Shown: positions 12,253 through 52,546 of the stretch, piece after piece
Numbering within the stretch: position 1 is the stretch's first letter
Layout: the number at the start of each line of letters is the position of its first letter
Source: Pecten maximus
Lineage: Eukaryota
Assembly: GCF_902652985.1 (NCBI RefSeq)
Contig: NC_047027.1
Span: 7,006,001-7,070,000, forward strand
Direction: 5' to 3'
Length of the DNA: 64,000 nucleotides
Translations under genes and position numbers: made by a program
The notes under the pieces: model-generated
The model's database searches: none
Told to the model about the DNA's origin: nothing
The model's input: only the letters and a program-made list of their open reading frames with translations

Positions 12253-12612
12253 TAAAATGAATTTTATTGTCCCATCAATAATCAGCACTCATCAAAACTT
12301 CCACCACATATAACATTTTTATTTCCCAACATACTTATTTTTGTTAACCAGGACAAGAAATGTAAAGCGTTGATAGGTCCCAATTCCCACGCTTCTTTTG
12401 CCTTCTGGAAATGTCTGGACATGTCTTGCGTCAGCAAATCATCACTAATTTTATTTTCCACAAGGTTACGAATGTCTATGAATAATTTTTATTTGTAATG
12501 GATTTTTTGTTGTAAAAACAGATGACTGGGGAATTTCACGAAGAGACATTAAGTGTTTTCATACAGATATCAAATACCGGAAAACCGTTACAGAGGCTGA
12601 AAACCACGGTGT

Positions 12613-12688: not shown

Positions 12689-13906
12689 ATGAATACTATT
12701 AGTACCGTAACCAGTAAAGTCGTGAGACCCGTCGTCAAATACACACAGGAGACGTTAACACGGGGTCTACAGTCAATGTAAGTAGTAGCTTTAATTCATT
12801 GACACATATTTATTTTATTTGTATTCAAATCCTCAGCTTTTCATCACTTCAGTAAATTATTTTAATATTATATATAGGGAAATCCCTCCATGTGCTGTAT
12901 ATTTGATATTTATCTATTTCTAATATTTAAATAATTACATATATGTTACCGTCTGTATACTTTAATACTGTTATATATATGATAGCTAGAAATATTTCTA
13001 CATTAAGGAAAACGTGTTAAAAAGAATCGTCATCCTTCTAAGTGTCTGCCTCCTTGAGAACTAGCTGGGTAGAATTTCCCCCTCGGCCTATTACCTCGTC
13101 AGACTAAATATTAAATCAGGGGTCACGTATTCGATCTTTAGTGGAGATGCTGAATAAAATAATGACCCCCTGGTATACTTGAAAGAGAGAACAGCCATTT
13201 TTATTTACGTATCGATTGTATAACAATATATTTTGAAATAAAGTTGAAATATTTTTTTTCTGTAGGACTCAAAACAATGGGCAGATAACATCCGCCACAG
13301 GGACCCCGCCCCCCTCTGCTGGCATGTTGAGGGCGTGGCAAACGCTACAGGAGGATAGCTGGGTCACCACCCAACGTCATTTGAGACCCCAACCCACGGA
13401 AACATTCAATACGATGTCGGCCGAGAGAAGTATACTAGGTAAGATAACATTTCAACTTTACTTGATGACATATCACACAGCTGAGGACGCTTACACTTCA
13501 GAAACGCGTGATCGGATTATCCATATTTCGTTATTGTATCGTCATACTCTGTTGATTTTGATACAAGTCAAATGTTTTTCTGCTGTTGTATTGCCAAAAT
13601 TAAAACGACATCGATAGTTATTTCACCTTAAATGGATTTTAAAACGTAGTTTACATTTCAGTATGAATATTGAAATAGAGAATCGGGAGATCGCAAGATT
13701 TATCAAAATAATATCTTTATGTTCATATTACGTCTGATCTAACCCTTTGTTAAGACTCCATGCTCACCACAAATATTTCAGTTAATAGAGTCTGTATAAT
13801 GTCTATTTTAGGATCAAGGAATCTCGGTCTTTTTGAGAAAAATTCGAATTCCGAGGATGTGCAATCCAGCATTCGAGCACTGTTGAAAGGATTTAAATTT
13901 GACTAG
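12689..13906 (+). CDS. Uncharacterised small protein family, paralogue A, 118 aa; exons 12689-12777, 13266-13438, 13812-13906
   Basis: GT-AG introns phases 2 and 1 give MNTISTVTSKVVRPVVKYTQETLTRGLQSMTQNNGQITSATGTPPPSAGMLRAWQTLQEDSWVTTQRHLRPQPTETFNTMSAERSILGSRNLGLFEKNSNSEDVQSSIRALLKGFKFD*; structure conserved in 8 other copies. Confidence 0.85.
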
Positions 13907-13929
13907 AGGACAGTGTGGTATCTACTCAG

Positions 13930-20400: not shown

Positions 20401-20754
20401 TTTTATTAAGACAAAAACATATAACCATAGTTTCGATATAATGAATTAAATGTTACGCAACACGTAAACTTCATTATTGATTTATTTATTTACCTGCGAT
20501 ATGTTAGAAAAGTGCATCCCATCCCAACAGTAACACCGGAACAAGCGGATTTTATCTAAATTTAGAACGGGGATTTCTGTACGCACAGAAATAAACTACG
20601 TATATACGCATAAAATCTCTTCGTATGCATTCAAATGAATCTGAATTATGACATTTTAAACAGAAAAATACATATATTCCTCGGGGTTCATATAAATAAT
20701 AAATTCATCTTGACTTGCGACTTTATACACCCAATATTTCAAGTTTGGTACAAT

Positions 20755-21303: not shown

Positions 21304-21351
21304 GGGATTTTCCCATGATATTTTTTATCTAAATATAGAACGGGGATTCCT
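21304..21351 (+). promoter_or_regulatory. kappaB-like + MEF2-like + kappaB-like module upstream of B (homologues 26376 for C, 36531 for D)
   Basis: GGGATTTTCC (21304), CTAAATATAG (21329), GGGGATTCCT (21342). Confidence 0.55.
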
Positions 21352-21697
21352 TTTCAGAAATAGCCTACTAACGCTTTCCACGGTAAAGATGACACAACAC
21401 TGCCGTATTTAAACGAGCCTGTTTATGTTAAACAAGTATTTATCTAAAGTTCTATGACTTATTTCATAGTAAAATAGTTTACAATCCAAAATATGTATAT
21501 TAAACCTTGGTATCCAAATGTCAACAAGTAAGAATCACTCGTTCTGTAAAGTTTCACTAAGGTCATCTCATTTTTCAATGCGTCATATGCGAAAAGGAAA
21601 ACCCACTGAAAACCGCGGTGTCTATATATAGATATACGAACGTATAAATAGGGAAGAGTACAGGGATGCTATATCACAAACACCACTGATACCAGAC

Positions 21698-22941
21698 ATG
21701 AATACTATTAGTAGTGTAACCAGTAAAGTCGTGAGACCCGTCGTCAAATACACACAGGAGACATTAACACGGGGTCTACAGTCAATGTAAATAGTAACTT
21801 TAATTCATTGACACATATTTATTTTATTTGTATTCAAATCCTCAGCTTTTCATCACTTCAGTAAATTATTTTAATATTATATTTAGGGAAATCCCTCCAT
21901 GTGCTGTATATTTGATATTTATCTATTTCTAATGTTTAAATAATTACATATATTACCGTCTGTATACTTTAATACTGTTATATATATGATAGCTAGAAAT
22001 ATTTCTACATTAAGGACAACGTGTTAAAAAAGAATCGTCATCCTTGTAAGTGTCTGCCTCCTTGAGAACTAGCTAGGTAGAATTTCCCCCTCGGTCTATT
22101 ACCTCGTCAGACTAAATATTAAATCAGGGGTCACGTATTCGATCTTTAGTGGAGATACTGAATAAAATAATGACCCCCTGATACACCAAGTATACTTGAA
22201 AGAGAGAACAGCCATTTTTATTTACGTATCGATTGTATAACAATACATTTTGAAATAAAGTTGAAATATTTTTTTTACTGTAGGACGCAAAACAATGGGC
22301 ACATACCATCCGCCACAGGAACCCCGCCCCCCTCTGCTGGCATGTTGAGGGCGTGGCAAACGCTACAGGAGGATAGCTGGGTCACCACCCAACGTCATTT
22401 GAGACCCCAACCCACGGAAACATTCAATACGATGTCGGCGGAGAGAAGTATACTAGGTAAGATAACATTTCAACTTTACTTGGTGACATATCACACAGCT
22501 GAGGACGCTTATACTTCAGAAACGCGTGATCGGATTATCCATATTTCGTTATTGTATCCTCATACTCTGTTGATTTTGATACAAGTCAAATATTTTTCTG
22601 CTGTTGTATTGCCAAAATTAAAACGAAATCGATAGTTATTTCACCTTAAATGGATTTTAAAACGTAGTTTACGAAACATTTTAAGTTACATTTCAGTATG
22701 AATATTGAAATAGAGAATCGGGAGATCGCAAGATTTATCAAAATAATATCTTTATGTTCATATTACGTCTGATCTAACCCTTTGTTAAGACTCCATCCTC
22801 ACCACAAATATTTCAGTTAATAGAGTCTGTATTGTGTCTATTTTAGGATCAAGGAATCTCGGCCTTTTTGAGAAAAATTCGAATTCCGAGGATGTGCAAT
22901 CCAGCGTTCGAGCATTGTTGAAAGGCTTTAAATTTGACTAG
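21698..22941 (+). CDS. Family paralogue B, 118 aa; exons 21698-21786, 22284-22456, 22847-22941
   Basis: Near-identical to A with open frame; exon-1 donor is GTAAAT. Confidence 0.82.
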
Positions 22942-24029
22942 AGGACAGTGTGGTATCTTCTCAGGCTTCCACATGGATCTTCAAAGGATTCCACATTGGT
23001 ATTCCCGGGGTTCTGCGTTGATCTTCCTAGTATTCCGCATTGGTTTCCCCGGGGTTCCATATTGATCTTCTCAGGATTCCACATTGGTATCCCCGGGGTT
23101 CCGCGTTGATTTTCCAAGGATTCCACATTGGTATCCCCGGGGTTCCGCGTTGATCTCTCCGGCAAAGGACATTGATCTTCACAGTATTCCATATTGATCT
23201 TCCCGGAATTACACATGAATATTCCCAGGATTCCACAGCGATTCTCCCAGGATTCCCCAGTGCAGGCTCCTAGACTCTGAAGTAATATGAATAACTGCTT
23301 TGTATTCAATGAATTCTTGTTTAGGTTGTAAGGTATGGAATAGAAAAAATGTTTGTTTTGTATGGAAATGTCTCTGTAGTATTGAGAGTAAATTATTTTA
23401 AGTTGTGAATGGGATGATTGTTATTGACGATTGTCGTTATTTATTGTCGTAGACTGATAACACTTTAAATGTAGAACTCTCCGATGTTATCAAAGGAGTC
23501 CTATGTGTCAATAGGTTGTGATGGAGTAAACAACATGGCCGAGTATGTTGTGTTTGTTATTGTTCATAAAACGATTGTAAGAAAATGTAAATAAATTGTA
23601 ATGAAATATAATCGATATTCTATGTTTTCATTATAATGAATCTGTATGGATGCTGAGTATTTAGCCTCGTCAACAGCCAAAAACATTTTGTTTTAGGTGG
23701 AATGTCCTTGTAACAAATAACAAATGGTGGAAGCCTCACGGAATACCGTCCATAGCAATCGGAGTTAAATGTCTTGCTCAAGGTCAAATTCACAATCGAA
23801 CAGGATAGTTAAAGGTCTCAGCCCACTATAAATATTGCGTAAGAATTGTACTAGCTGCCCCAATTGCTTAAATAGTGAGAGGCGACTAAATTTGAGATAT
23901 TTTCTCTTCTTTCGTAACGACTTTCTTCTTCCTAATGTCTCCCTTGAAAATACCTCACTTCTGGCCTTTAGTTGAGCGTTTACTCTTACTCGAAACGTTT
24001 TGGTTCTGTCCCCTGATAAAGTTACAGTT

Positions 24030-24965
24030 ACAGATAAAAACTACACGTCAATCAGTTATAGATAAAACTACACGTAAATCAGTTATAGATAAAACTACAC
24101 GTAAATCAGTTATAGATAAAACTACACGTCAATCAGTTATAGATAAAACTACATATAAATCATTTATAGATAAAACTACACGTCAATCAGTTATAGATAA
24201 AACTACACGTAAATCAGTTATAGATAAAACTACACGTAAATCAGTTATAGATAAAACTACACGTCAATCAGTTATAGATAAAACTACACGTAAATCAGTT
24301 ATAGATAAAACTACACGTAAATCAGTTATAGATAAAACAACATGTAAATCAGTTATAGATAAAACTACACGTCAATCAGTTATAGATAAAACTACACGTC
24401 AATCAGTTATAGATAAAACAACATGTAAATCAGTTATAGATAAAACTACACGTAAATCAGTTATAGATAAAACTACACGTCAATCAGTTATAGATAAAAC
24501 TACACGTCAATCAGTTATAGATAAAACTACACGTAAATCAGTTATAGATAAAACTACACGTCAATCAGTTATAGATAAAACTACACGTAAATCAGTTATA
24601 GATAAAACTACACGTAAATCAGTTATAGATAAAACAACATGTAAATCAGTTATAGATAAAACTACACGTAAATCAGTTATAGATAAAACTACACGTCAAT
24701 CAGTTATAGATAAAACAACATGTAAATCAGTTATAGATAAAACTACACGTAAATCAGTTATAGATAAAACTACACGTAAATCAGTTATAGATAAAACTAC
24801 ACGTAAATCAGTTATAGATAAAACTACACGTCAATCAGTTATAGATAAAACTACACGTCAATCAGTTATAGATAAAACTACACGTCAATCAGTTATAGAT
24901 AAAACTACACGTAAATCAGTTATAGATAAAACTACATGTAAATCAGTTATAGATAAAACTACACG
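24030..24965. repeat. 27-bp satellite, about 35 clean copies, followed by a short 21-bp repeat (to about 25065)
   Basis: Exact 27-nt periodicity; source of the 395-aa RQSVIDKTT ORF. Confidence 0.97.
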
Positions 24966-26767
24966 TTATATTAACAATATCACTAGTTATATTAACAATA
25001 TCACTAGTTTTATAAACAATACCACGCGTTATATTAACAATATCACTAGTTTTATTAACAATATTCCGTTTTGTAATTTTGCTATTTACGATAATTGTAA
25101 TAAAGGCCAGTCTTATAAGTAATGCGAGTTAATTCTTCAAGCCCGACATTCAATTGAACTGTACGAGGTATTTTTGTTGGTAATGTCTGGACCTAAACTT
25201 CTCCAGTATATGAATCTTAAGACGCAAGTTCACTAATATTGTTTCTCAAAGCAATGAATTAGATATGATATATTTTCATGTTACATTAATAAAATAAAAC
25301 ATGGTCTTTATAGTGGTAACGACGGTTAATAAATAAGACAAAAAACATATAACAATGGTTTCGATATAATGAATTAAAGGTAAAACAACACGTAAACTTC
25401 ATTATTGATTTATTTATTTACCTACGATATGTTAGAAAAGTGCACCCCATCCCAACAGTAACACCGGAACAAGCGGATTTTTATCTAAATTTAGAACGGG
25501 GATTTCTGTACGCACAGAAATAGACTACGTTTTAACAATAAGGATGATGCAAGTCTTTCTATTGATAACAACGGAAATATGTTGATATTTGAGACCAGTT
25601 TTGTACCAAAGTATCTTCTAGTATGAAAATATCTTCGTATGCATTCAAATGAATCTGAATTATGACATTTTAAACAGAAAAATACATATATTCCTCGGGG
25701 TTCATATAAATAATAAATTCATCTTGACTTGCGACTTTATACACCCAATATTTCAAGTGTGGTACAATATTAGTTCCTTATAGATAGTACCCTGACTTTT
25801 GATATTTCCGATGAGTATGTACCCAGACTTGTGACTTCACACCTTATATTTCAAGTTTGTTACAATATTACTTCCCACGAGTTAGTATCCACACTTGTGA
25901 CTTCACACCTTATATTCTGAGTTTGGTACAATGTTACTTCCCACGAGTTAGTACCCAGACTTGTGACTTCACACCTTATATTCTGAGTTTGGTACAATGT
26001 TACTACCCAGACTACATACTCATCATCGTTTTATTTACCTGGTATGTTTGTGTAGATAATCTATGTTCATAACTTTTACACAAGGAAACTTATCCGACAA
26101 AAACAACTTCGGCGTCATGGACCGGTTACTGTTCTTCTATTTCTATATCATATCAAAGCTTGAAATATCTGTAGGCATTAGTGATCACGAATGCGTCCAA
26201 ATTTCTGGGATTTTTTAGAAAAAAAAGTTTTGATTTTTGTTTTTGTTGTTTTTAAAAATTTTACTTAGATCTTATCAAGTGTAAACGGTAAATGAAAAAG
26301 AATAAATAAAAAAAAAAAAACTGATTGGAATCTGATTATAATAAAGTTACATTTAAAACTAATCATTAATCTTTCGGGATTTTCCCATGATATTTTTTTC
26401 CAAATATAGAACGGGGATTCCTTTTCAGAAATAGCCTACTAACGCTTTCCACGGTAAATATGACACAACACTGCCGTATTTAAACGAGCCTGTTTATGTT
26501 AAACAAGTATTTATCTAAAGTTCTATGACTTATTTCATAGTAACATAGTTTACAATCCGAAATATGTATATTAAACCTTGGTATCCAAATGTCAACAAGT
26601 AAAAATCACTCGTTCTGTAAAGTTTCACTAAGGTCATCTCATTTTTCAATGCGTCATAAGGAAAGGAAAACCCACTGAAAAACCGCGGTGTCTATATATA
26701 GATATACGAACGTATAAATAGGGAAGAGTACAGGGATGCTATATCACAAACACCACTGATACCAGAC

Positions 26768-26984
26768 ATGAATACTATTAGTACCGTAACCAGTAAAGTC
26801 GTGAGACCCGTCGTCAAATACACACAGGAGACATTAACACGGGGTCTACAGTCAATGTAAGTAGTAACTTCTCTTTATTTCACTCACATGTTTTTGTTTG
26901 TTTTTGTTTTACTTTAAAGCTGTTTTAATTATTCCAGATCATAAGCTTACCATCACTCCCGTTATTTATTTAGATAATATATAT

Positions 26985-27016
<32 letters not shown>

Positions 27017-28129
27017 TGTACATGTTGAAAAATCCTTCCATGTGCTAATATATAATATGTATTTATATATTTTGATTTCTTGAGAATCCGTAGATCCGTA
27101 GCTTATCATCGATTCCGTTATTATTTAGTTCAAATATTTTAATGATTATAGTTTCAATATATTGTGGTCTATGTATTAAAGATATGATAGAAATATTTCT
27201 AGATAAGAAATGTTAAATAATAAACGTCACCCATGTAGGTATCTGATTTTACAGAACAAGCTAGGGAGAGCTTATCCTCTCGCCATCCGACTATAATTTA
27301 TTCCAGAGGCCCCGTATCTCTAGTGGAAACGATGAGATAAAGTATACTTTCGTGAGAGAACACTCGAACATACATTTTATTTCAATGCGTCTTTCTGTGA
27401 GTTTTATTTCTCTTTGTCTTGTTAATTTAGAAGTATAAATTGTACGCCACGACAATATTAAATAAATCAAAATTATATTTTTTCAACTGTAGGGCGCATC
27501 ACAATGGCCATATACCGTCCGCCACAGGGACCCCACCACCCTCTGCTGGCATGTTGAGGGCGTGGCAAACGTTACAGGAGGATAGCTGGGTCACCACCCA
27601 ACGTCATTTGAGACCCCAACCCACGGAAACATTCAATACGATGTCGGCGGAGAGAAGTATACTAGGTATGATTACATTTCAACTTTACTTGGTGACATAT
27701 CACACAGCTGAGGACGCTTATACTTTAGAAACCTCTGGTCGGATTCTCCTAGTTTCGTTATTGTATCAGTATTTTCTGTTGAGTTTGTTTTGTATAGATA
27801 AATATTTTTCTGGAGTTATAATAAATGTTACATTTCAGTATGAATATAGAAATAGGGAATCGGGAAATCTAATTAATAAAAATAATAATATTCATGTTCC
27901 TGATACTTCTGAATTAACCCTATGCTAAGGCTCCATCATCACCGCAATCATTTAAGTAATTAGAGTCAGTAGCATGTACAACCAACCACATTTTACAATG
28001 TATCCATCTTATTTACTGTGATTATCTATTTTAGGATCACGGAATCTCGGCCTTTTCGAGAAAAGTTCTAATTCTGAGGATTTGCAATCCAGTGTTCGAA
28101 CATTGCTGAAAGGATTCAAATTTGATTGA
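26768..28129 (+). CDS. Family paralogue C, 118 aa; exons 26768-26856, 27493-27665, 28035-28129
   Basis: Same exon lengths as A/B despite diverged introns; exon 3 vs B has 9 synonymous and 3 non-synonymous codon changes and a TAG to TGA stop swap. Confidence 0.88.
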
Positions 28130-28753
28130 AGGTGCTGTGGTATCCTCCCCAGAATTCCTCAGTAATCTTCCTAGGATTCCATAATGATCTTCCGGAGATT
28201 TCGGAATAATCTTTCCAGGATTCCACATTGGTTTCCCAGGGATGTCGCGATGATTTTTACAGGATTCCTCATTGATATTAAAGGGATTCCAAAATGACCT
28301 TCCTAGGATTCCACAATTGTGGGATCAAACTGGAATCCCTCATTGATCTTCCGTGAATTTCCCAGGATTCCCTAGTGCAAGCACTTGGACTCTGAAATAA
28401 TACAATATATGAGGATTGACAGTGTTATTGTTAAGATATCAATGATTCTTTGAATTCAATGAGTTCTTGTTTAGGATGTATAAACTTGATTTATATTTGG
28501 TATGAATGAAAAGAATTCTTTAGTGTTGAGAGTAATTTATTTCAAGCTGTGTATTGCATGATTGATGTTGATATGTGTGGTTATTTTTGTATCCGTAGTG
28601 GATAGATTGTATTTATATATGATAATTGCTATTATTACATTATACCCAACCGATAACTTTATAATGTAGATGTATAGAAAGTTGTATTAACAGGAAATAA
28701 CTTGAAATGGAATCGGAAACTTTAATTTCATATACGGATCAGTAGATTCCCAA

Positions 28754-28915
28754 GGTTGTGATGGTTACGTCAGGTCGTTATGGAGATAGGAGTTAACAAC
28801 ATGGCGGTTGTGATGGTTACGCCAGGTCGTTATGGAGATAGGAGTTAACAACATGGCGGTTGTGATGGTTACGCCAGGTCGTTATGGAGATAGGAGTTAA
28901 CAACATTGCGGTTGT
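28754..28915. repeat. 52-bp x3 tandem repeat
   Basis: GGTTGTGATGGTTACG...AACAACATGGC at 28754, 28806, 28858. Confidence 0.9.
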
Positions 28916-29959
28916 GGCATTGTGTTATGTTTGGTTTGTTAATAGAAACGAAAGTGACTTCAAATAAAATTGTAAATGAAATGTGATAAATACAATCAAG
29001 TTCTTTGTTTTTACTATGATGAATCTGTTTTTATATTGGGTTTGTAGCCCCGTAAACAACAAAGGTGGTTTTGAGGAAGATTTTCCTTAAAGCAAATGAT
29101 GGCAGTCTCACCGACCAGTTCCCGTCAAAGTTATCAGCTGTTCAAATGATATTATAAAAATAAGTACAAATAATAGATTTCGATACTGTATCTGAACCAA
29201 ACCTGGTCTCGTCAGTGATGCAAAATGTTCAATCCTAAGTGGTAATTGAGTAAATTGAAATAGATCGAATGTAAATGGGGAGTTGTTATAACCCACATGT
29301 TCGGATAATGTCTTAACATTCAATTTTGGATTTCAATAGAACGTGTGAATATTCCAAACCGTGTCGCTATTATAATGAATTAAATTTGTGATACCAGGTT
29401 ATGGAAAACCTTGGGGATTAAAGCCTACCAGCAGTGGCTATCACCTGTAATATCTTAGGATTGTACTAAAGACACACACACATTGTGGTTTCTTTTATCT
29501 CCCTTATTTAACCGGTCAGTTTAAAAGAGTTTATTCGGGATTAATTGACCTCTCGTTCAAGAATTAAAAACAATCATTGTTTCTAGACAATGAAAAAAAT
29601 AAATAAATAAGAAAACGGATGGTTATCCTAAAATTATTCTCAAGATATGGGATTGTATGATATTAAGCAAGTTATGTTTCAATACGACACTTTTAAAGTG
29701 CTGACTAAAACCCTATAGAGTTAAGTGTTGCACGACAGCACGAGCATGAAAACCGAACAATATACACAATTTAACGGAAACGAGCATTTCCTTTCATTGA
29801 GAAAAACGAGCAGGTCACTTGTGGATGTTACAACACAAACAATACCCATCGCTATATCGTACGATACAAAATTAAAATAACACTTTACACATCAAATGAC
29901 GTCAGTGAGATGGTAATACCACACATATATCTTTGATGGTATATATGGCGATCAACGAC

Positions 29960-30100
29960 ACACCACGTGGGTTTCCCCCGGACATTCCCAGTTACTTCTA
30001 ACAGTGATACCCCTTCGACCTTCCATCCGGTTAATACACACGAGCAATATCATGTTTTACCTCGTTTTATAAATGTTGTCAAACAAATAATAATCATTAA
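29960..30100 (+). mobile_element. Decayed V-domain-like SINE fragment
   Basis: CCACGTGGGTTTCCCCCGG...CTTCCATCCGG resembles the SINE at 57145-57350. Confidence 0.55.
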
Positions 30101-30188
30101 ATTTTATTCTATAAAGACATTTTAACTGGCCTTGACAATGGTTTTTTAAACTTGTCATGTCGATATTTCAGATCACGGTTCATTAATT

Positions 30189-30300
30189 CAATACCACTCG
30201 TTATACCAACAATACCACTCGTTATACCAACAATACCACTCGTTATACCAACAATACCACTCGTTATACCAACAATACCACTCGTTATACCAACAATACA
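30189..30300. repeat. 21-bp x5 tandem repeat
   Basis: CAATACCACTCGTTATACCAA. Confidence 0.95.
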
Positions 30301-30329
30301 ATTCGTTTTATCTTTTTGGGGGATATTGC

Positions 30330-31512
30330 GACACAAACACTTTTATATTCCAAATGCCCTTTATTCCAAAGGTCTAATAGTTCGAAGGCCCGATATTCAG
30401 AAAAAGCTGGTTATTAATACATGTTGATTGATAATTTCATGTCAGCATTACTCGAAATTGTTATTTAAATAATTATTTTAATCTTATTTTTTAAAAATCA
30501 GTTATTAGTGTATTACATATTCAATGTCAATTTCTTCAAAAGAAACGTTCACAAAAGGTACCAAAACATAAAAAGAAATGGCGAAAAAAAAAAAAAAAAA
30601 GTAAAAATCATGCATGGCCTGCGTAAGAAGAGTTCCCGACATGAGCATCGCTCCGTAATTCAACGCATCGCAACACAAATTGGCCCCATAACAACCACCG
30701 TCATCAAGATGGGAGTGGATGGAGCGACAACTCTGTGTAGAGACTGTATATTTCAAATCTTAGCGATGGTCGAACATGTGGTTATGTTGCTTTAGATCAA
30801 TATTCCTTTTTTATGAAATGCTCACGACGTCAACTATTATACTACTGATCCTCACGACGTCAAATATTATACTACTGATCCTCACGACGTCAAATAGTAT
30901 ACTACTGATCCTCACGACGTCAAATATTATACTACTGATCCTCACGACGTCAAATATTATACTACTGATCCTCACGACGTCAAATATTATACTACTGATC
31001 CTCACGACGTCAAATATTATACTACTGATCCGCGCGCTTTAAGGCACATAGCCTTTTTCTTTCGGGGTTAAATTTCATTTTTTCGTATATAATTATCATA
31101 ATGGTGATAAACATGTTATACTCAATGGGAAGCCATTTATATATGTATATAATGGATAACTATTCATCCTTGTTACAATGTTAACTATTTTCGGACTATC
31201 GGGCCTTAGACTATCGGGCCTTTAGACTATCGGGCCCTTAGACTATCGGGCCTTTAGACTATCGGGCCTTTAGACTAACGGGCCTTTAGACTAACGGGCC
31301 TTTAGACTATCGGGCCTTTAGACTATCGGGTCTTTAGACTATCGGTCCCTTAGACTATCGGGCCTTTAGACTATCGGGCCTTTAGACTATCGGGCCCTTA
31401 GACTATCGGGCCTTTAGACTATCGGGCCTTTAGATTATCGGGCATTTGGACTATTGGGCCTTTAGACTATCGGGCATTTAAACTATCGGGCCTTCGTTAT
31501 ATAAGGCGGTCA
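30330..31512. mobile_element. Foldback-like non-autonomous DNA element with 16-bp subterminal repeats
   Basis: Right array GACTATCGGGCCTTTA (about 19 copies, 31195-31495) is the reverse complement of left AAGGTCTAATAGTTCGAAGGCCCGATATTC (about 30368-30400); boundaries approximate. Confidence 0.55.
30821..31030. repeat. 30-bp x7 tandem repeat
   Basis: CTCACGACGTCAAATATTATACTACTGATC. Confidence 0.96.
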
Positions 31513-32100
31513 CTGACATTCGTTATGTAAACAAGACATTACTTTATATCAGTGATACAGATTGTTTAAGTTGTTGTTGACGTCGAGTCCCTTATGCTCC
31601 ACTTCATCTCCAGGGTTGAAGTGTTGCGTGACAGCGTAAATATTGAAAACACAGCAATATACAATTTAACGGAAACGATCGCATCCTCTACAGGGAAAAA
31701 GGAGACGGTCGCTTGTTGATAAATACCGTTCCACAAAGGGAATAGAATACTTATTACACCGTACGATACAGAACGACTATACACTTGGTACACTTCAAAT
31801 GATGTCACGGAAATGTCTTTTCAGCTTCAGCACATTTTCCTCCATAAGGATGACTTTCCTGTTGATGTCATTAAATTTGTGAAAAGGTTTATGACCAGCA
31901 TGGATTCATGGTATATAATAATCTTTAAATAAATCGTTATTGAAAAAAACGTTGTTTCACTGAACTTTATTGAAATTTCTTCCATATCGCTGGGATACCG
32001 TGATACTTATGTAATGCGTTCATTGATACTATGAACTACACTAAAGGTTCAGTTATACTTTCTGTCTTGTTTGTCACAACATTACACATATCACCAGAGA

Positions 32101-32210
32101 TTTGGTTTGTTTGGTTTGTTTTTGTTTAACATCCTTTTAACAGCAAGGGTCATTTAAGGACGTGCCAGGTTTTAAAGATTGAGGAAAGCCGGAGTACCCG
32201 GAGAAAAACA
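32101..32210 (-). mobile_element. SINE 3' fragment with V-domain-like motif and (AAAC)n-like tail
   Basis: Reverse complement TTTTTCTCCGGGTACTCCGGCTTTCCTC...CCTTAAATGACCCTTGCTGTTAAAAGGATGTTAAACAAAAACAAACC. Confidence 0.65.
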
Positions 32211-33736
32211 TACAACCAGGAAAACATTTCATGACTCATGTGTGCTGCAATATCACGTAAGACTAACCCAGGTCCCTAGAATGTTAACATTTCAAATCAA
32301 AAAATCAGTTTTATAATTGTGGTCTCTAAGATATGACTTAAACTAAGTTTTAAACTATGGGGAGATAATCTAGTATTATAATTCAGTTAAAAAATCCTTT
32401 ATAGAAATCACAACAGTATCCTTTACCTCGGTTGATGTTTGTGTGAGAGACAATTCCCTTCAAACTCTGTAACATTTTCTGATAACCAAGCTTACAAGCT
32501 TACATTGTTATACGATTGCTTCCTAAGATAAAGGATCATATACAAACTTGCTTGCATACAAGTTAATCAATGTTTTCATAATATTCATTTACAACATAAG
32601 GTTATCTTACTCCCATATATGTAAATCATGATCAATACATTAATAGTGTAGTCAATGTGGTTCTGTAAGTTATAATTTGATATAGCCATTTATACTCTGT
32701 TTGCGTATTATATCAAGAATATATATATATTGAAAAGTTCTTCTGATTCTAAATAATTTATGACAAAGGCACAAAGTGAACCAATAATGATATATTTCAA
32801 TGCACTCATAAATAAATAAAATTGAAATGAAATGGCTTGGACACGATGTACAACCATCGGAAAATCCAGCCGTGATCTGTCGCACTCCAATTAGGCCGAA
32901 ACTATATGGTAAAACAAGTTCCTAGAGTCCCAGTTAGTGTAATGGTAGTTCGGACATGGAAGTGTTATATTCTTTTCCACGGTGATTTTACTACACCAAG
33001 TATTCCAGTTGACAGGTGGCGAGTTGTTATACCGGGTGAGTACAGTAGGTTATATAAATAATAGTGCGTGTATTATCATATCATTGTCTCCGACTCTGAC
33101 ATAATATGGAAACAGTTCATATTACAAAATAATACCTGGTGTTGGAATCACATTAGGCTGTAGTTGTTGATAGAGATGAAGACGTCTCTTCGGTATACAG
33201 TATATGAACATAACAATGGATGTAGTATATGGAATAATGTGTCTTCTGTTGAAGATAATATCAATGAAATAAAACGTCTCTTCTCAGATGTTAAAGATGA
33301 TATGACGTTTTTTCTGTTGTAAATATTGGAACTTCTGTTAATGATACTCCAGTATATGGGAAAACACAGCACATAAACTATTAAATTAAAGTCGACAAAA
33401 TGTTACAATAAGGATGGGTGTATTACGAATCCTCTTCGAAAACCGGAGGTGGCTTTATGGATTGTAACCGTGGATATATTGGTGTTTGTTGGTACGATGG
33501 TGGTATGTCAGTGGGACTGCCGCTGGTGAAGGAACTGGTGATAAACTGGTGACCTGAGAAGAACTTCTTTCATATTTTTCTTGTTTAAAATCTCAAATAC
33601 TACTATATATAGGCTCTGCTGTTGAGAGTTCTTTAATCGAGGATTCCATAGATATTTGTCCATTTTTTTTGTAATTTACTTGGAATATTTACTCTGGAAT
33701 AATTTGGATTTTTTTGTTGAAAATTGTGCTCAAATG

Positions 33737-33978
33737 AGTAACAAGTGATATTTATCCAGATTAAAAATCACTATTCTGTTGCAATTAAACAGAAGTAACT
33801 TGACCAAACGTGCAATTTACGCTTGTTTTGCCGAAATTAGCAGGTAGCTTTACAAATTAAATGTCAAAATCAAGACCCAAGGATAGCCATGATATATATT
33901 AACAATTGGCCAATTTACTTCTGTTTAACTGCAACAGAATAGTGATTTTGAATCTGGATAAATATCACTTGACTTACT
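33737..33978. mobile_element. MITE-like inverted repeat (about 70-bp arms, about 100-bp spacer)
   Basis: CAAGTGATATTTATCCAGATTAAAAATCACTATTCTGTTGCAATTAAACAGAAGTAA pairs with TTACTTCTGTTTAACTGCAACAGAATAGTGATTTTGAATCTGGATAAATATCACTTG. Confidence 0.7.
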
Positions 33979-35832
33979 ATTTACATAAACCTTTAAAAAG
34001 TGCTTTGAATCCATTTTTCGCTCGTCTTTTAACTTGCTCACGAATCGAAATACCGATGGTGCAATGAGGTGTGACGAGTCAAACAGATCTAGAGGTACAC
34101 ACTCGTACGATGACAAACCTTAATTTGTTTGCCCCGATTTAAAACGTTTATTTTACAATTATAAAATCGCTTTTAATATTTTTAGAAAATGTAAATATAC
34201 AGATATTCACAAAAATCATTATTGATAAAAGAGGTTGTATCAATCGGAAGAAATTGCTAAGAAAAGAAACTATATTAGATTTGAAGGGGACACGTTGGAA
34301 TACATGAGAAAGTTCGGAATTGTGACAAAGTGTCATCACCTAAAGCTGGTCCCGAAATTAGTAAAAAAAAAAAAATACATAATCATTTTAAAGGATTGGC
34401 CGCTGAGGCTAGCGAGGTAACTGGTGTTTGTGAATGATAATTTTGCGCCATTGTTTGAATAATTAGACTGTCCTATCGTAAAAAAAATAAAATAAAGAAT
34501 CGCCTGATTAAAAATACTGGCAAAAATTAATACAGTTATGCAGTGTAAACAATATCGTTTAGGCATTAACCAAAAAATCCGATCTGTATATCTCTAACCC
34601 GTACTCCACGTTGTATCTTAATTGCTGTTTTATATCAATATGATGTATTGTGTTGTTTATAGTATGTACTTATGGCCCGTATGGTCCACCGTCAATACAG
34701 AAATTGAAAGAAAACTGAAAATTGTTAAGAATGATACACGGACACAGCCGAATGACGCCACGCGGGTACGAGTGACGTGTCCGCCAAGCGTTCTGCTTAC
34801 GAAACGGCACTGTACTGTTTATTGGAATAAACAATTGTCATTGTCAATCGAAACATATTCATTGTTGTAGGACCTAATGAATTGTAATGTTATTGATTTG
34901 CACTAATTTAGGCATTAAATAAAGAATATTTGTATATGCCATCATGTGACTATGTTATTGTTTATTATTTTGTTATTATTATGGGAGAAGTTGTTTACAA
35001 TTTGGTAAAACTTGCTAACTAATCCCTTTGTCATGTTTGTATGTCAATAAAATATGTTTAAACTAAAACAATTAAAAATTAAATAAACAGAGATGCGGAT
35101 AGATTTTCGTCCTAGTCCTAGTTTTATGATATATTAAAGAATGGTATCTATTGATTAATATGTTATAACCTGAAATAGGTATTGCTCGAATAAAGAAATG
35201 TAGTCGAATTTGAAATGTATCTCGTGAATCAGAAATGGTGTGAAACCGTGAAACGAATTGATTATGTATGAATAGTGTGTATTTTTAGTTAAATAACAGA
35301 TGGGTATACAACGACATGTAACTATAGGGACGGGTAAATCACACATGCTGTATCACGCGGAGTCACGGATAGTACTCTGTGAAATCTTTGAGACAGCTGT
35401 CTTGCTGTGATCTAACGGTCTATAAAGCTCCCTAATCATTGTTTATTAGTAGCATTACAGAGATACACTTAAAACCTAAACATAAGATGCATGATAAAGT
35501 CATAATTTCAATGAACTACACTCAAGTGTAAAGTAATAATCAACAATATTCAACAAACTCCATTGAAAATTTGATTTAATTTGTCTAATTCATTTATCAC
35601 ACTCTCAAGTTATATCAATCACCAGTCATCAGTTAATTCGTCATTTACCAAAGTTATGACACGTTAATTACAAAAAACATACATTTTCACGTACACAATT
35701 TAATATAATAATGCTGCTTCTCTGGACCTGGCTTCAAGTATGAAATATTTTCATGTTTATATTGTCGACTTAATAGAGATCCAAACAGTACCGTTACTAG
35801 TTACGATAATAACCCTAATTAAGATATAATAC

Positions 35833-36437
35833 TACGATGGCCGACAAAACACATTTTCTGAAATTGGTTTTTGTCATGACAAATGATTAAGTACAAATAA
35901 TTATGTACAAAGCGCTTTTTCTGAAAAAAAGTTTTTGTCTTGACAAATAAATATGTACAAAACTGACCATGTTGTTCCCCAACCCTCTGTTTTAAAAGAA
36001 ACCTCCAGATCTGAGGTGTGCAATTTATCCTCATGACCAGGAATTCAAGAATGTTAGAATGAGGCCGCATGGTATTTACACGCATGTGTTTCCTCTGTAT
36101 CCGTGTGTGTTAATGTTACAATAAATGAATATCGTACGTGTAATTGCGTCTCGCTATATCGATACTTTGTTTCATAACATTACTTATTAGGTCTACATCT
36201 GGTCATGATGATAAATTGCACAGCTCATATTTGGAGGGTTCCATTAAAACTAAGGTTTGGGGAACAACCCTGACAGTTTTGAAAATGTTTTCTGTACATA
36301 ATCATTTGTACATAATTATTTGTCATGACAAAATATGTATTTAGAAAACGTGTTTTGTACACAATTATATAGAATATTTAGGTACAAAAAACCAGTTTGT
36401 AGCAGTATGTTTTTGCCGGCCGCTGCCGGCAATCGTA
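35833..36437. mobile_element. Degenerate TIR/foldback element
   Basis: TACGATGGCCGACAAAAC...TTTTGCCGGC...AATCGTA termini; inverted TTTGTCATGACAAA and GTACAAAT blocks on both sides. Confidence 0.55.
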
Positions 36438-36530
36438 TAATACAGTCATTTAAAGACAAATATATGTAAAATGCTTCATTAATTTATTTGTCTATGACGT
36501 GTTAAGAAGTATAACCTCACACCATATGTT

Positions 36531-36850
36531 GGGATTTCCCCGCCATTTCTCTGATCTAAATTTAGAATGAGAATTTCTTTTTAAAGCTGTTTCCCCTTTT
36601 CCCCATGCAAGGATAACACAAATTTATATTTCGTATCTCTAAATATTTCAGAAAATTTGAGTTCATATATCTTGTAATAATATGAAATATAGAGATGAGT
36701 TTTAATCATTTAACACATGGTGTTGATTTCAATATTAAACTGACTGAATCGATTTAACAGAAACCCACTCGTGATTCACTCGAGTGTAAACTTTCAGTGC
36801 CTCAAGTCTATTTATAGCCGAGGAAACACGTCTTGTGTGTGTATATATAA
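36531..36850 (+). promoter_or_regulatory. Promoter of D: GGGATTTCCC (36531), CTAAATTTAG (36556), CTATTTATAG (36808), TATATAA (36844)
   Basis: Consensus kappaB and MEF2 matches at positions homologous to B/C. Confidence 0.55.
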
Positions 36851-43043: not shown

Positions 43044-43888
43044 CTACACTGTAAATGTTAATTGGTTTATACTGTCTTCTTTTGTTTGTAAACGTTTTGT
43101 CTTTAATCTTCGCATCATCTTTTTTGTCGCTGTTATCGGTAAATTTGTTGGTGCTGGTTTCAAAATCGACGGCACCTGGGCAACCATAAAATCTCCGAAA
43201 ATTGGTTGTCTGTCCAATAACACTGGTTCATGTTTTAATAGTTTCCTGAATATTTCCAACTGCTTCGATCCTGAGAGAAAAGGTGAAAATGTGTTATAAC
43301 AGTGTTTAATTATGTTGTCTCTTTCTGCTTCAGATTTAATATCAACTGTATCTAGAACTAGATATATATTATTTAGATATTTAAAAAAACAAACCTTTAA
43401 TTGTCTTCCCCACTGTGTTGAAGGTGTCCATTTCACCTGGTCTGACCTGACCGTCCTGACGAAGTGCGCCACACACCCTCAACATATCTTCCGAGGGGGC
43501 GTGGTCGCCCTTGTGGATTTTACTTGGTACTTGAGCGGGGAACTGTATGAGTAAAATATTCAGAGTTAATTTACTAATAACAGATATACATAGCAATGTT
43601 TTGTCGGGAAATGGTACATAGAATAGCTTCTGTTTTGTTTGGTAGATAATTGTTTAACGTCCTATCAACATCTAAGGCTATTTTATATTGTCCTTTCAAT
43701 TCAAGATAATTAAAATATTGATATCATGGGGAAATGATCTGATGTAAAATAACATAATCTGAATTGATATAACCACAATAAGAACACTTTAATAGTTGAC
43801 ATACTTACAATGTTTGAAAACGTCTACTGATGTCTTTCCGTGTCGATACGATCATGTGCCTCAATAGATTACTACATGTAGCGTTCAT
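43044..43888 (-). pseudogene. Family paralogue E1; exons 43888-43809, 43542-43395, 43270-43044; exon 2 is 1 nt short (frameshift in G-run, possibly a sequencing error)
   Basis: G5 at 43495-43499 versus G6 in E2/E4/E5; exon 2 is 148 rather than 149 nt; otherwise intact. Confidence 0.6.
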
Positions 43889-45344
43889 GGTTTACAATTA
43901 TATCTGAGCTCTCTCGTATATCGTGGTTACAGACAGAAGTGTTCAGTCAAAATAAGCCTAATGGTTTAGTACACAACAGTCTGAATATAAACAATGAATG
44001 AACAACAGAAATGATCGTACGATATCGCGTGTCAAGTTAAGCAGCCTCTAAATATGTTGGGGTTTTACCTTCCCTGCCTTGAAGGGATGGACACGTGCGA
44101 ATATTAAGCTAAAACTCGGAATATCAATATATAAACATGTTCTATGTATAGAATTCTGGCAATTTTTCCAGTTTTCAGCAGAAAAACTATATATAGAGTT
44201 TAGAAATACCATGTTTATTTTGATATATCTGTACATAATGATGGTAACATAGAAACATATTAATATGAAACTAGAAATACTGGGATTTTAAATCTAACAA
44301 TATGTACTTATATTGGTGTTAGATTAAATATATATACATTTGTATGTTGTTAATTCGTGATTGATATTAATATTACTATTCTCGATCCAAGTTTACATAA
44401 AATATCACGAATTTACAATCGAACTTCCTTTACATTTCACAACCAATACATGCGACATTGCATATTAAATATTATCTTAATCATTCAGCCTATATAAACA
44501 TGTATAAGCGTGGGTTTTATGTTAGATTGACAATCATGTGCGTTTGTTCGGAAGATTGATAATCATGTGTGTGTTTGTTTGAGTTAAATAGGACAATCAT
44601 GAATAGTAAACTGTATAAAACGTCTTTGTTACTGTCATCCGTTTGATGACAAAGCCTTTTCTATACATAAGTTTTGTTAAACGTGTTTTAAATGAATGCG
44701 GGATGAGTTACTTATGGGATATATAATAGTCTTCTGAATGTAATCCACTATGGCTAAAAACATTTTATTAAGTTAAGACTTTATGACCAGTACTTACAGA
44801 AATGGCAGAGTGATGGACACAATTCATCAAAGGCTATATGTTATAGAGTTTTTAAGGATAACTGTCATTTTAAAAGTTATTTACATACTTTGATAAAGAT
44901 TGAGTCATTTTTTCGTTAATTTCGTACAACTAACCATCAATTTATCAGATTGAGTGTAAGGAAAGAACATGTTCACATTGTAATCGTCAACAAATTTGTG
45001 ATGAATTTCATGATTTACTTGAATGTACAATATCATCTGCTCATAGAATTTTATATATAGACAAATACTGTTGGTCAAGACCAAATATCATTAATTTTAA
45101 CGAACTCATGAATATAACTAAAGTTAAAACACCAATCAAAATGTTACTTTTATCAGAATACTTAATAACATTATATGTCCTGCTTACTAAAAATGAAAAT
45201 GTTTTATTTTGAAACAGTGCCATGTATCAACTACGAGCACTACTTTAATTGTATATGTTTTATTGTCAATATGTTTTTCTCTATACCTCATGTCAGTACA
45301 TTTGCCTGTGAAAAGAGAAGAAAACAAATTTGTATTTGATTTGA

Positions 45345-46220
45345 TGTGTTTGTTTGTTTGGGTTACGGATAATCTAGATAGTGTGTGTTTGTTTGGGTAA
45401 TGTATAATCTAGATAGTGTGTGTTTGTTTGGGTTACGGATAATCAAGATAGTGTGTGTTTGTTTGGGTTACGGATAATCAAGATAGTGTGTGCTTGTTTG
45501 GGTAATGTATAATCTAGATAGTGTGTGTTTGTTTGGGTTACGGATAATCTAGATAGTGTGTTTGTTTGGGTTACGGATAATCTTGATAGTGTGTGTTTGT
45601 TTGGGTTACGGATAATCAAGATAGTGTGTGTTTGTTTGGGTTATGAGTAATCTAGATAACGTGTGTTTGCTTGGGTTATGTATAATCTAGATGGTGTGTG
45701 TTTGTTTGGGTTATGAGTAATCTAGATAGTGTGTGTTTGTTTGGGTTATGGGTAATCTAGATAGTGTGTGTGTTTGTTTTGGTTATGTATAATCTAGATA
45801 GTGTGTGTTTGTTTGGGTTACAGACAATCTAAATAGTTTGTGTTTGTTTGGGTTACGGATAATCTAGATAGTGTGTGTTTGTTTGGGTTATGAGTAATCT
45901 AGATAACGTGTGTTTGCTTGGGTTATGTATAATCTAGATGGTGTGTGTTTGTTTGGGTTATGAGTAATCTAGATAGTGTGTGTTTGTTTGGGTTATGGGT
46001 AATCTAGATAGTGAGTGTGTTTGTTTTGGTTATGTATAATCTAGATAGTGTGTGTTTGTTTGGGTTACAGACAATCTAGATAGTGTGTGTTTGTTTGGGT
46101 TATGGGTAATCTAGATAGTGTGTGTTTGTTTGGGTTATGGGTAATCTAGATAGTGTGTGTTTGTTTGGGTTATGGGTAATCTAGATAGTGTGTGCTTGTT
46201 TGGGTTATGGGTAATCTAGT
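45345..46220. repeat. 35-bp minisatellite ending each macro-repeat unit (also about 49983-51068, 55402-55955, 59537-60272, 63857-64000)
   Basis: GTGTGTGTTTGTTTGGGTTACGGATAATCTAGATA, variable copy number. Confidence 0.96.
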
Positions 46221-47689
46221 GTGTGTACGTGTGTAAACTATCACTGATTTTACCAATCAAAACATTGCTTATGGGAGAACTTTTAAGCTACCACGGTAGA
46301 CTTTGCTATACAATGAAATTAACAGAATTTCAACCAGTATCTTCAGTGATACCAAATAAATTTCACAACTCGAGAAATACATTTGGTATTACTGAAAACA
46401 TGGTTAGATATCCTCTATATATATCTCCTATAAACTACACTAACAATAGACAGTAACATAGCGATCAATTCTATCTAGGAGTAATATAGTTTTAAACGAT
46501 TTAAAGCAATCTCCTCAAAATATTCTGAAATCGGCTTAATTTCGATCATATACATGATACAGAAATAACAAAACAGGAAAATAACAAGTGAGACATTTAT
46601 TGATCACCCGTATACAATCCCTAAATACAACACTCGACAGTGACTCATTACACCGTAATACAACCTCAAAAAAAATAACGGTATAACATAATCACACGAA
46701 ATCAATCGTTTTACAATCAAGTTATTATACAACATTGACACCAAAACACAAAATCACAAATACTTCACAAACATCAATTTCAAACAAATAATCTAAAAGT
46801 ATAAATATAGATATATATAATCCCCTAAAAAAACACACGCAATTATTTCCACTATTCAATCCACCGGATACCACCGGTGGATTACAGTGAACATCGCCAT
46901 AAACACTAATGACGATGTCTTCTATTGAAGATAAAATCAAATCATGGTTATCTCCCTTTACACCTCACAACCAATAATACTATTTACAGAAAAGCATGTT
47001 TACAAAATACCCTGACAAGAATAATGTTTGTAAACAATCAAGGAACCCCCTAGATTTGTTTAACCTCTTCACTACGGATGTACAGTTTCCGATATGGTCC
47101 CCCGTTAACACACTAGAAGTGTGGTGAGGAGGCGTATAGATATATAATACAACTTCCCCGTCATTAAATGCTTCCTTATCATACTTAATAAAACAAACAT
47201 GGGCATGTAAATATATAAATATATTGGCTATATGTATCTGATATGATCGCTTTAACGGTGTCTTGAAAAGAAGATTTAACATAGACGTACATAACTGTTC
47301 AACCTCACCTTTGGTTGTATCCCATTATTGTACTGTTTTAAAACACTACATCAAAACTATTTGTGAAAGTTCCTTGTAAGATAGAATTGCACACTTATGG
47401 TTACCTAGGCGGTCAGGCTTCGGTTCCCCGATCAGACTGAATAAGTATGTGGTCACCTGCCCGATCACGTCGGATTTCTCCGTATTCCCTGGTTTCATTC
47501 CCCAGTAAGATCCCTCGCGCGCTTCAATCCGGGCCGACAAGAGTGATTAATACCAGTTGATATATTTCATTTTGAAATTGTTGTAAAATAAATAATTTAC
47601 ATTTTAGAATGAAACTTACATCATCCTAAAAGTTCATGTTACTGTTAACGGTACACAACATCTCTAACCTATTACAGCCTACTTCGATC

Positions 47690-48535
47690 CTACACTGTAA
47701 ATGTTAATTGGTTTAAACTGTCTTCTTTTGTTTGTAAACGTTTTGTCTTTAATCTTCGCATCATCTTTTTTGTCGCTGTTATCGGTAAATTTGTTGGTGC
47801 TGGTTTCAAAATCGACGGCACCTGGGCAACCATAAAATCTCCGAAAATTGGTTGTCTGTCCAATAACACTGGTTCATGTTTTAATAGTTTCCTGAATATT
47901 TCCAACTGCTTCGATCCTGAGAGAAAAGGTGAAAATGTGTTATAACAGTGTTTGATTATGTTGTTTCTTTCTGCTTTAGATTTAATATCAACTGTATCTA
48001 GAACTAGATATATATTATTTAGATATTTTAAAATACAAACCTTTAATTGTCTTCCCCACTGTGCTGAAGGTATCCTTGTCACGTGGTCTGAATTGACCGT
48101 CCTGACGAAGTGCGCCACACACCCTCAACATATCTTCCGAGGGGGGCGTGGTCGCCCTTATGGATTTTACTTGGTACTTGAGCGGTGAACTGTATGAGTA
48201 AAATATTCAGAGTTAATTTACTAATAACAAATATACATAGCTATGTTTTGTCGGGAAATGGTACATAGAATAGCGATTGTCTGGTTTGGTTTATTATTGT
48301 TTAACGTCCTATCAACATATAAGGCTATTTTAAATTGTCCTTTCAATTCAAGATAATTAAAATATTGATATCATGGGGAAATTATCTGATGTAAATTAAC
48401 ATAATCTGAAATAATATAACCACAATAAGAACACTTTAATAGTTGACATACTTACAATGTTTGAAAACGTCTACTGATGTCTTTCCGTGTCGATAAGATC
48501 ACGTGCCTCAATAGATTACTACATGTAGCGTTCAT
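47690..48535 (-). CDS. Family paralogue E2, 151 aa; exons 48535-48456, 48189-48041, 47916-47690
   Basis: MNATCSNLLRHVILSTRKDISRRFQTFSPLKYQVKSIRATTPPSEDMLRVCGALRQDGQFRPRDKDTFSTVGKTIKGSKQLEIFRKLLKHEPVLLDRQPIFGDFMV...QLTFTV*; GT-AG introns, phases 2 and 1. Confidence 0.82.
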
Positions 48536-51500: not shown

Positions 51501-52546
51501 CGTAATACAACCTCAAAAAAAAATAACGGTATGACATAATCACACGAAATCAATCGTTTTACAACCAAGTTACTATAATATATTCAGACAAAAAAAATAC
51601 GAAAACATGAATACTTTACAAACAACTATTTCAAACAAATAATCTAGAAGTTTATATATATGAAATCCCAAAAGACACACCCAATATTTCCACTCTTCAA
51701 TCCACCGAATACCACCGGCTGATTACAGTGAACATCGCCATAAGTACATAGTACAATCACTAACGGCGATGTTTTCTATTGAAGATAAAATCAAATCATG
51801 GTTATCTCCCTTTACACCTCACAACCAATAATACTATTTACAGAAAAGTATGTTTACAATATACCCTGACAAGAATAATGTTTTTAAACAATCAAGGAAC
51901 ACCCTAGATTTGTTTAACCTCCTCAGTACGGATGTACAGTCTCCGGTATGGTCCCCCGTTAACACACACTAGAAGTGTGGAGAGCAGGCGTATAGATTGA
52001 TAATATAACTTCCCCGTCATTAAATGCTTCCTTATCATACTTAATAAAACAAACATGGGCATGTAAATATATAAATATATTGGCTATATGTATCTGATAT
52101 GATCGCTTTAACGGTGTCTTGTAAAGAAGATTTAACATAGACGTACACAACTGTTCAACCTCACCCTTGGTTGTATCCCATTATTGTACTGTTTTAAAAC
52201 ACTACATCAAAACTATTTGTAAAAGTTCCTTGTAAGATAGAATTGCACACTTATGGTTACCTAGGCGGTCAGGCTTCGGTTCCCCGATCAGACGTGAATG
52301 AGTATGTGGTCACCTGCCCGACCACGTGAGTTTTCTCCGTATTCCCTGGTTTCCTTCCACATTAAGATTCCTCGCGCGCTTCAATCCGGACCAACAAGAA
52401 TAATAATACCAGTTGATATTACTCATTTTGCAATTGTTGTAAAATAAATAATTTACATTTTAGAATGAAACTTACATCATCCTAAAAGTTCATGTTACTG
52501 TTAACGGTACACAATATATCTAACCTATTTCAGCCTACTTTCGATC

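Follow-up and report, generated by a model that had tools for sequence, protein, structure and literature searches.

A 53-nt block of non-coding DNA upstream of two diverged paralogous genes of the scallop Pecten maximus, here called B and D, carries an NF-kB-type (kB) site, a MEF2 site and a second, weaker kB-type site at identical spacing. Both genes lie in a 64,000-nt stretch of contig NC_047027.1 (the window; all coordinates are window positions) that also holds the related genes A and C and five paralogues of a further clade, E. The paralogue footprint, the occurrence of further strict sites at the same genes and the genome-wide adjacency of MEF2 and kB sites together support the view that selection maintains the block as a cis-regulatory module, in which Rel-type and MEF2-type sites are combined and which likely acts through Rel plus MEF2. 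On balance, we think it probable that this module is an enhancer that would switch on a scallop-restricted family of proteins, predicted to be mitochondrial, in response to immune or stress signals.

In gene B the block contains kB1 (GGGATTTTCC, 21304-21313), a MEF2 site (CTAAATATAG, 21329-21338, offset +25) and kB2 (GGGGATTCCT, 21342-21351, offset +38), with kB1 starting 394 nt before the ATG at 21698. The corresponding sites of gene D are kB1 (GGGATTTCCC, 36531-36540), MEF2 (CTAAATTTAG, 36556-36565) and a degenerate kB2 (GAGAATTTCT, 36569-36578), and here kB1 starts 381 nt before the ATG at 36912. An initial annotation of this DNA had described the module as kB-MEF2-kB, and its coordinates, its +25 and +38 offsets and its distances to the ATG all hold. 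The motif assignment stands for kB1, which is a strict match to GGGRNNYYCC in B, C and D, and for the middle site, which matches YTAWWWWTAR strictly and is of the form CTA(A/T)4TAG in both B and D; it does not stand for kB2, which is strict in neither gene. The three-motif module is real, but the conserved unit is a contiguous 53 nt rather than a set of isolated motifs, and weaker likeness between B and D carries on to about 21395 in B, for about 100 nt. The two distal partial copies that had been reported upstream of B and C were recovered, both with a strict MEF2 match, as was the altered MEF2 site in the proximal module of C (CCAAATATAG at 26400), which fails the strict consensus. The C-type indels of the block region were also seen in one RNA contig of run X1, the only promoter contig among the reads.

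The block aligned between B and D without gaps, with 39 identities in 53 nt (74%), as against 53.5% identity in the codon-aligned coding DNA (42 of 111 third positions identical), which agrees with the annotated contrast between strongly diverged proteins and a retained upstream sequence. The local alignment had a score of 40, above the highest value from shuffled sequences, which was 31 for 500 nt (200 shuffles) and 33 for 1500 nt (60 shuffles). In both introns and in the 3' flank, B and D resembled each other at chance level: of 200 shuffles, 72 reached the observed score for intron 1, 198 for intron 2 and 25 for the 3' flank. Within the block, 25 of 30 motif positions were identical versus 10 of 18 spacer positions (Fisher p=0.049, for motifs defined post hoc), and kB1 and MEF2 were equally conserved, at 9 of 10 positions each. 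By these comparisons the block is a footprint between old paralogues. In a tree of the family the D clade (Pecten, Argopecten and Ylistrum) had a support of 95/94 and the E clade, with the same number of species, three, a support of 100/99, while the B-type sequences formed no resolved group at the base; because the D clade holds all three species, the split between B and D appears older than that between Pecten, Argopecten and Ylistrum.

The upstream region of B is 97.8% identical to that of C, and the introns of B are 97.9% identical to those of A, with the introns of A and C being 78-82% identical to each other. Because its upstream region matches C while its introns match A, gene B is either a recent recombinant, with the promoter of C and the body of A, or an assembly mosaic. 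The annotated comparison of B with D holds, but since B is a mosaic it is in fact a comparison of the B/C promoter with that of D. The footprint is independent of B, because C has both kB-type sites in common with D and retains an intact distal MEF2 site.

Further sites of both kinds were found around the family (Table 1). In all of A, B, C and D a second perfect MEF2 motif lies at most 105 nt from the ATG; that of B recurs at 12613 in A and 26692 in C. The B motif, CTATATATAG at 21622, could itself serve as the TATA box; one spliced RNA contig starts at 21675 in B, a kind of end that cannot define the start of transcription. The pair of a MEF2-type motif and a palindromic strict kB site in intron 1 of B is present in A at 12868-12886 and has been lost from C, so that sites turn over among the copies, A lacking the module but having a kB-like site and the intronic pair. 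Alignment revealed no block of the B/D type in the E paralogues. The E copies nevertheless have a strict kB site at about -180 in 4 of 6 cases and a perfect MEF2 site at about -305 in 5 of 6; among the five copies in the window, the former is present in E2, E4 and E5 and the latter in all. A strict kB and a perfect MEF2 site both occurred within 500 nt of the ATG in 6 of 10 copies, representing all three clades, versus 1 of 580 random 500-nt windows. Across five promoter and intron regions, strict kB and MEF2 sites had densities of 67 and 100 per 100 kb, compared with 3.4 and 4.8 in random DNA, an excess of about 20-fold in which A, B and C are not independent samples. By eye, kB1 of D with its 5' flank (36523-36540) resembles an E-clade kB site (48698-48715) at about 16 of 18 positions, in the opposite orientation to the gene; this likeness was not significant by alignment.

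Table 1. Positions of genes, conserved blocks and candidate sites in the window
Feature	Position	Strand	Description
Gene A	12689..13906	+	3 exons, 118 residues; identical to XP_033758421
Gene B	exons 21698-21786, 22284-22456, 22847-22941	+	118 residues; identical to XP_033758422
Gene C	26768..28129	+	3 exons, 118 residues; identical to XP_033758424
Gene D	exons 36912-36997, 37748-37905, 38190-38296	+	116 residues; identical to XP_033758425
Five E-clade paralogues	43044..62603	-	ATG at 43888, 48535, 53955, 58284, 62603
Conserved block, gene B	21304..21356	+	39/53 identical to D; sole alignable non-coding B-D block
Conserved block, gene D	36531..36583	+	39/53 identical to B
Conserved block, gene C	26376..26422	+	MEF2 site altered to CCAAATATAG (26400-26409); spacer 1 nt shorter
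Distal MEF2 and kB-like copy, upstream of B	20556..20578	+	Found by motif and pattern scans
Distal MEF2 and kB-like copy, upstream of C	25485..25507	+	MEF2 intact; found by motif and pattern scans
Proximal MEF2 and probable TATA box, gene B	21622..21650	+	Perfect MEF2 CTATATATAG 21622-21631; probable TATA box 21643-21650
Proximal MEF2 and probable TATA box, gene D	36808..36850	+	Perfect MEF2 36808-36817; probable TATA box 36842-36850
Intron-1 MEF2-type motif adjoining kB site, gene B	21877..21895	+	kB site strict and palindromic
kB-like site upstream of A	12528..12537	+	One mismatch; in A's unrelated upstream region

The exact module pattern had four matches in 918 Mb, all at this locus. A DNA search with the module returned B and C only; it missed D and so lacks the sensitivity needed at such divergence. 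With a looser MEF2-kB pattern there were 884 matches versus 11 for the reversed control, an enrichment figure that we discarded because one young repeat dominated the listed matches (81 of the 100 listed). This repeat, about 1.3 kb long, accounted for 14 of 16 distinct loci examined. When its MEF2 variant was excluded, 86 pairs remained at a distance of 1-6 nt and 8 (7 distinct) at 9-14 nt. The close pairs (1-6 nt) represent about 38 independent families, counted as clusters of the flanks of 46 near sites chosen as not obviously repeated together with 5 repeat representatives; where flanks were not retrieved, a match was allotted to a repeat family if its motif string was identical, and a few clusters might be joined through weak homology, yet even 33 near versus 7 far families gave p=4e-5. 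A scrambled MEF2 motif yielded 16 matches at 1-14 nt (4 near and 3 far when distinct) and a scrambled kB motif 13 (4 distinct near, 1 at 8 nt and 2 far), and the Markov expectation was 3.2 close pairs per six spacings. In absolute count, the excess of close pairs is specific to the true motifs. A search in the opposite order gave 71 close matches, mostly the same sites read through a palindromic kB motif and thus not independent. A 15-nt spacer from kB to MEF2 was ruled out as a general rule, the 92 pairs at 10-15 nt belonging mostly to one repeat and to tandem arrays.

Close pairs were present in several repeats that are unrelated to one another, among them a long terminal repeat (LTR) retroelement with a pair at each end, in both of its terminal repeats. 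The initial annotation had named membership of a dispersed repeat as one of the findings that would speak against the module. The module came through this comparison, its exact pattern being unique to the locus and the B/D block showing no likeness to five pair-carrying repeat families beyond the motif core; an origin from a dispersed repeat was thus ruled out beyond that core for the five families compared. The repeats themselves deserve a brief description. In the young 1.3-kb repeat (L012, about 580-1890; L025, L034, L038), which has hundreds of matches in the genome and a main group 85-96% identical, an internal perfect MEF2 site lies 2 bases from a strict kB site, and at the left end of the repeat are a stretch of T and a short palindrome, which we take to be as in non-autonomous Helentron-type elements. 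The LTR retroelement (L117; L052, L053, L056, L057) has zinc-knuckle, reverse transcriptase, RNase H and integrase frames, a third frame of 403 residues without a Pfam match, and an LTR of about 1.15 kb that is 98.6% identical between loci. Ten dispersed loci (L073, L074, L078, L080, L095, L097, L101, L102, L109 and L116, centred at about 5000) have in common a block of 150-250 nt with 68-83% identity (90% between L101 and L102), organised around MEF2, a 5-nt spacer and kB, usually with a downstream CCAAT, which may be an old repeat or a promoter family.

The proteins encoded by these genes belong to a family that, as far as sequence searches reach, is restricted to scallops and comprises three clades, B, D and E. 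Searching 1.84 billion representatives with a profile produced nine matches, eight from four scallop species and one short bacterial match; the latter, to 36 profile positions of a 5165-residue protein, and two weak 33-residue matches in a metagenome scan were set aside as probable chance. No relatives were found in Pfam, the PDB (sequence search, 0 matches) or Atlas, nor was there a meaningful structural match. In 10 of 10 aligned proteins the first 30 residues are basic, acid-poor and amphipathic (4-6 K/R, 0-1 D/E), and in 9 of 10 the motif R-x-[LFI]-[QH]-[ST] lies near the end of this segment. Such presequence features and an R-3 motif are as described in PMC7723863. Exon 1 is likely to encode a mitochondrial presequence, and the products are predicted to be mitochondrial. 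No hydrophobic signal peptide or membrane segment was found, the peak 9-residue hydropathy in the first 30 residues being 0.5-1.3, and the B and D proteins are free of Cys, with a mature charge close to zero. Because of these properties and the lack of a Pfam match, we ruled out that they are antimicrobial peptides. AlphaFold2 predicted a mostly disordered protein with its best helix at residues 48-67 (pLDDT 53 overall, 73 in residues 51-60); the two models obtained, with pLDDT 49 and 53, are too weak for a fold search. A reading of the WxxL sequence as an LC3-interacting region (LIR) motif was dropped, since the segment is predicted to be helical and the protein looks imported.

Evidence of transcription came from four RNA runs compared with B at 85% likeness, all of which showed splicing of intron 2 and three of which showed splicing of intron 1; letters of the A, B and C types were all present in the RNA contigs. 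For D, the evidence of expression is its RefSeq model. The summed exon contig depth was about 25,000-100,000 in run X3 and below 700 in the other three, and although depth is a poor measure of expression, this gap hints at condition- or tissue-dependent expression. In the mechanism that we propose, a Rel/NF-kB dimer would bind kB1 and perhaps the weaker kB2 three bases beyond the MEF2 site, and a MEF2 dimer would bind the middle site and the second site near the TATA box. Rel and MEF2 may then cooperate to raise transcription after immune or stress signals, a cooperation suggested by the genome-wide excess of close MEF2-kB pairs. The initial annotation had likewise proposed immune- or stress-inducible genes, which is plausible. 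On import, the part encoded by exon 1 would be cleaved off; the remaining protein, about 90 residues long and largely disordered, would have one conserved amphipathic helix (residues 48-67) that might contact a partner in mitochondria and modulate their activity in activated cells.

Several observations weigh against an immune enhancer of this kind. The module is absent from the upstream region of A, and transcripts of the A and C types are present although A has no module and C has lost the MEF2 site of its proximal module. kB2 departs from the strict consensus by one mismatch in B and C and by two in D, and the MEF2-kB2 pair of D was not recovered even by a scan allowing one mismatch. Genome-wide, the commonest spacer is 5 nt, which differs from the 2-3 nt of the module, many close pairs sit within repeats, and the ratio of near to far pairs, tested for the true motifs against the pooled scrambled controls, was not significant alone (p=0.12). 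Close pairs did not mark the upstream regions of IL-17 genes: they occurred upstream of 2 of 24 IL-17 loci versus 3 of 58 random loci (p=0.63) and 1 of 20 homeobox loci. Strict kB sites were found upstream of 9 of 24 IL-17 loci versus 9 of 58 random loci (p=0.04), a mild rise only, but the comparison with homeobox loci (5 of 20) gave p=0.52. The IL-17 set comprised 24 of the 25 matches to the domain, with one member of a close tandem pair dropped, and the homeobox set the top 20 of 72; the start sites of these genes are not known, which weakens these upstream counts. In a Pfam scan around 46 close-pair sites most loci were blank, the exceptions including a TBK1/IKK-type kinase, a TRIM and a RING gene; 20 controls gave unrelated matches, and no clear contrast between the two sets emerged. 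The presequence features were scored without a background control set or a trained predictor. Literature searches returned no induction, binding or localisation data for these genes, and the locus identifiers did not occur in the literature text or supplementary data examined; the main text of PMC8150855, in the portion available, does not name these loci. Separately, one close MEF2-kB pair was seen between exons of a TBK1/IKK-epsilon-type kinase gene (L115, about 5000).

The sites could also belong to a tissue enhancer, in which MEF2 keeps the genes constitutively and highly expressed in a single tissue (either muscle or blood cells) and the kB sites only tune this expression, the products being tissue-specific mitochondrial accessory proteins. 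MEF2 is a muscle regulator, a perfect MEF2 site lies within 500 nt of the ATG in 9 of 10 copies versus 7 of 10 for a strict kB site, and the differences in depth between runs suit tissue as well as treatment. However, kB1 is conserved between B and D as well as MEF2 is, and further strict kB sites are present upstream of E copies and within the first introns of A and B; we regard a tissue enhancer as somewhat unlikely. A different set of factors is very unlikely in our estimation, namely NFAT5 or RBPJ at the kB-like sites and, at the middle site, SRF or a different AT-rich binder, responding to osmotic or developmental signals. Such factors would be suited by the degeneracy of kB2 in D, by the change in C, which shifts the middle site towards a CArG box, and by the extension of the conserved stretch beyond the three motifs. 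They are at odds with the strict kB 10-mers at both kB1 sites and the strict CTA(A/T)4TAG at both middle sites, and scrambling either motif abolishes the genome-wide excess.

It may also be asked whether the block is functional at all, or is an old transposon fragment or gene-conversion patch common to B/C and D in which the motifs are passengers. That several repeat families bear a close MEF2-kB pair, that the commonest repeat matches the distal copy except for the spacer and the end of the kB site, and that copies at this locus have recently exchanged sequence would all be in line with such a relic. We nevertheless give it only a small probability: the resemblance to the five repeat families ends at the motif core, the exact pattern is confined to this locus, and the identity of the block is above that of coding DNA, with mismatches leaning to the spacers. 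An ancient repeat origin followed by selection would be compatible with these data.

Clustered kB enhancers are known from insect and vertebrate immune genes, and the scallop locus is like them in having, both upstream and within intron 1, kB 10-mers that are strict or nearly so; it differs in the MEF2 site held at a fixed spacing between kB sites. The presumed identity of kB2 of gene B with the kB site of diptericin could not be confirmed. MOCCI/C15orf48 is a mammalian inflammation-induced mitochondrial microprotein, and by analogy only the scallop protein is likewise small, predicted to be mitochondrial and predicted to be under NF-kB control; unlike MOCCI/C15orf48, the scallop family lacks a transmembrane segment, and searches by sequence and in Pfam, the PDB and Atlas brought up no similarity for it. 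MER41 is a transposon-borne immune enhancer in mammals. Scallop repeats, including the terminal repeats of the LTR retroelement, similarly bear ready-made MEF2-kB pairs, but the B/D module was not traceable to any of the five repeat families compared. A literature search that included the available part of PMC11077085, and that left most subscription journals uncovered, found no described MEF2-NF-kB composite. The initial annotation had pointed to Drosophila, where, according to Clark 2013 (PMC3807682), the required MEF2 site of antimicrobial-peptide genes is on the TATA box and distal MEF2 sites mattered for a Drosocin reporter. The analogy holds in that MEF2 sites occur at the promoters of small-protein genes, which in the Drosophila case are infection-induced and NF-kB-family-dependent (PMC3807682). 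It fails for the placement of the site, which in scallop is between kB-type sites about 360 nt before the ATG, and for the product, which looks mitochondrial and not secreted, with no hydrophobic signal peptide. The probable TATA boxes of B and D fit neither CTATAWAAGM nor CTATATAAAGC. Judged by these features, the locus is not a member of the Drosophila MEF2-TATA promoter class and resembles a kB enhancer with help from MEF2.

The introns of A-D are all GT-AG, and RefSeq names the products as Pecten maximus uncharacterized proteins. A degenerate 22-nt tandem repeat occupies the whole of the transcribed 3' untranslated regions of A (13920-14200), B (22958-23256) and C (28148-28317). At the exon-2 acceptor of D there is a 90-nt duplication (37617-37803) that is in frame and open, and use of the upstream acceptor would yield a form of 146 residues. 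Exon 2 of E1 (43394-43541, minus strand) has a frameshift in a C run relative to E2-E5, indicating a pseudogene or a homopolymer error. The E array extends rightward beyond the window with three fragments containing exon 1 only and an inverted complete E copy (L118, 950-5850; L119, 1323-2110), and a frame with an IgGFc-binding domain (L123, 3953-5245) is situated about 54 kb past the right-hand end of the window. Between A and B there is a degraded A-rich stretch (15800-20400, 16-18% GC) with traces of a 27-nt satellite that is clean at 24025-24966; this stretch looks like poorly called assembly.

To our knowledge, almost no cis-regulatory elements have been mapped in bivalves. The locus offers a compact, naturally footprinted candidate enhancer with built-in variants, B being intact, C lacking the module MEF2 site, D having a weak kB2 and A having no module, which makes it directly amenable to reporter assays. 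It also draws attention to a MEF2-Rel pairing that is over-represented genome-wide and borne by repeats. A broader proposal, that the short-spaced MEF2-Rel composite is a regulatory code of scallops spread by mobile elements and here drives immune mitochondrial microproteins, is unlikely; if true, it would represent an invertebrate invention parallel to the mammalian inflammation-induced mitochondrial microproteins, retuning mitochondria in immune activation. For the family itself, unstudied yet transcribed, a Rel and MEF2 enhancer would connect immune signals with the control of mitochondria in an animal that is farmed.

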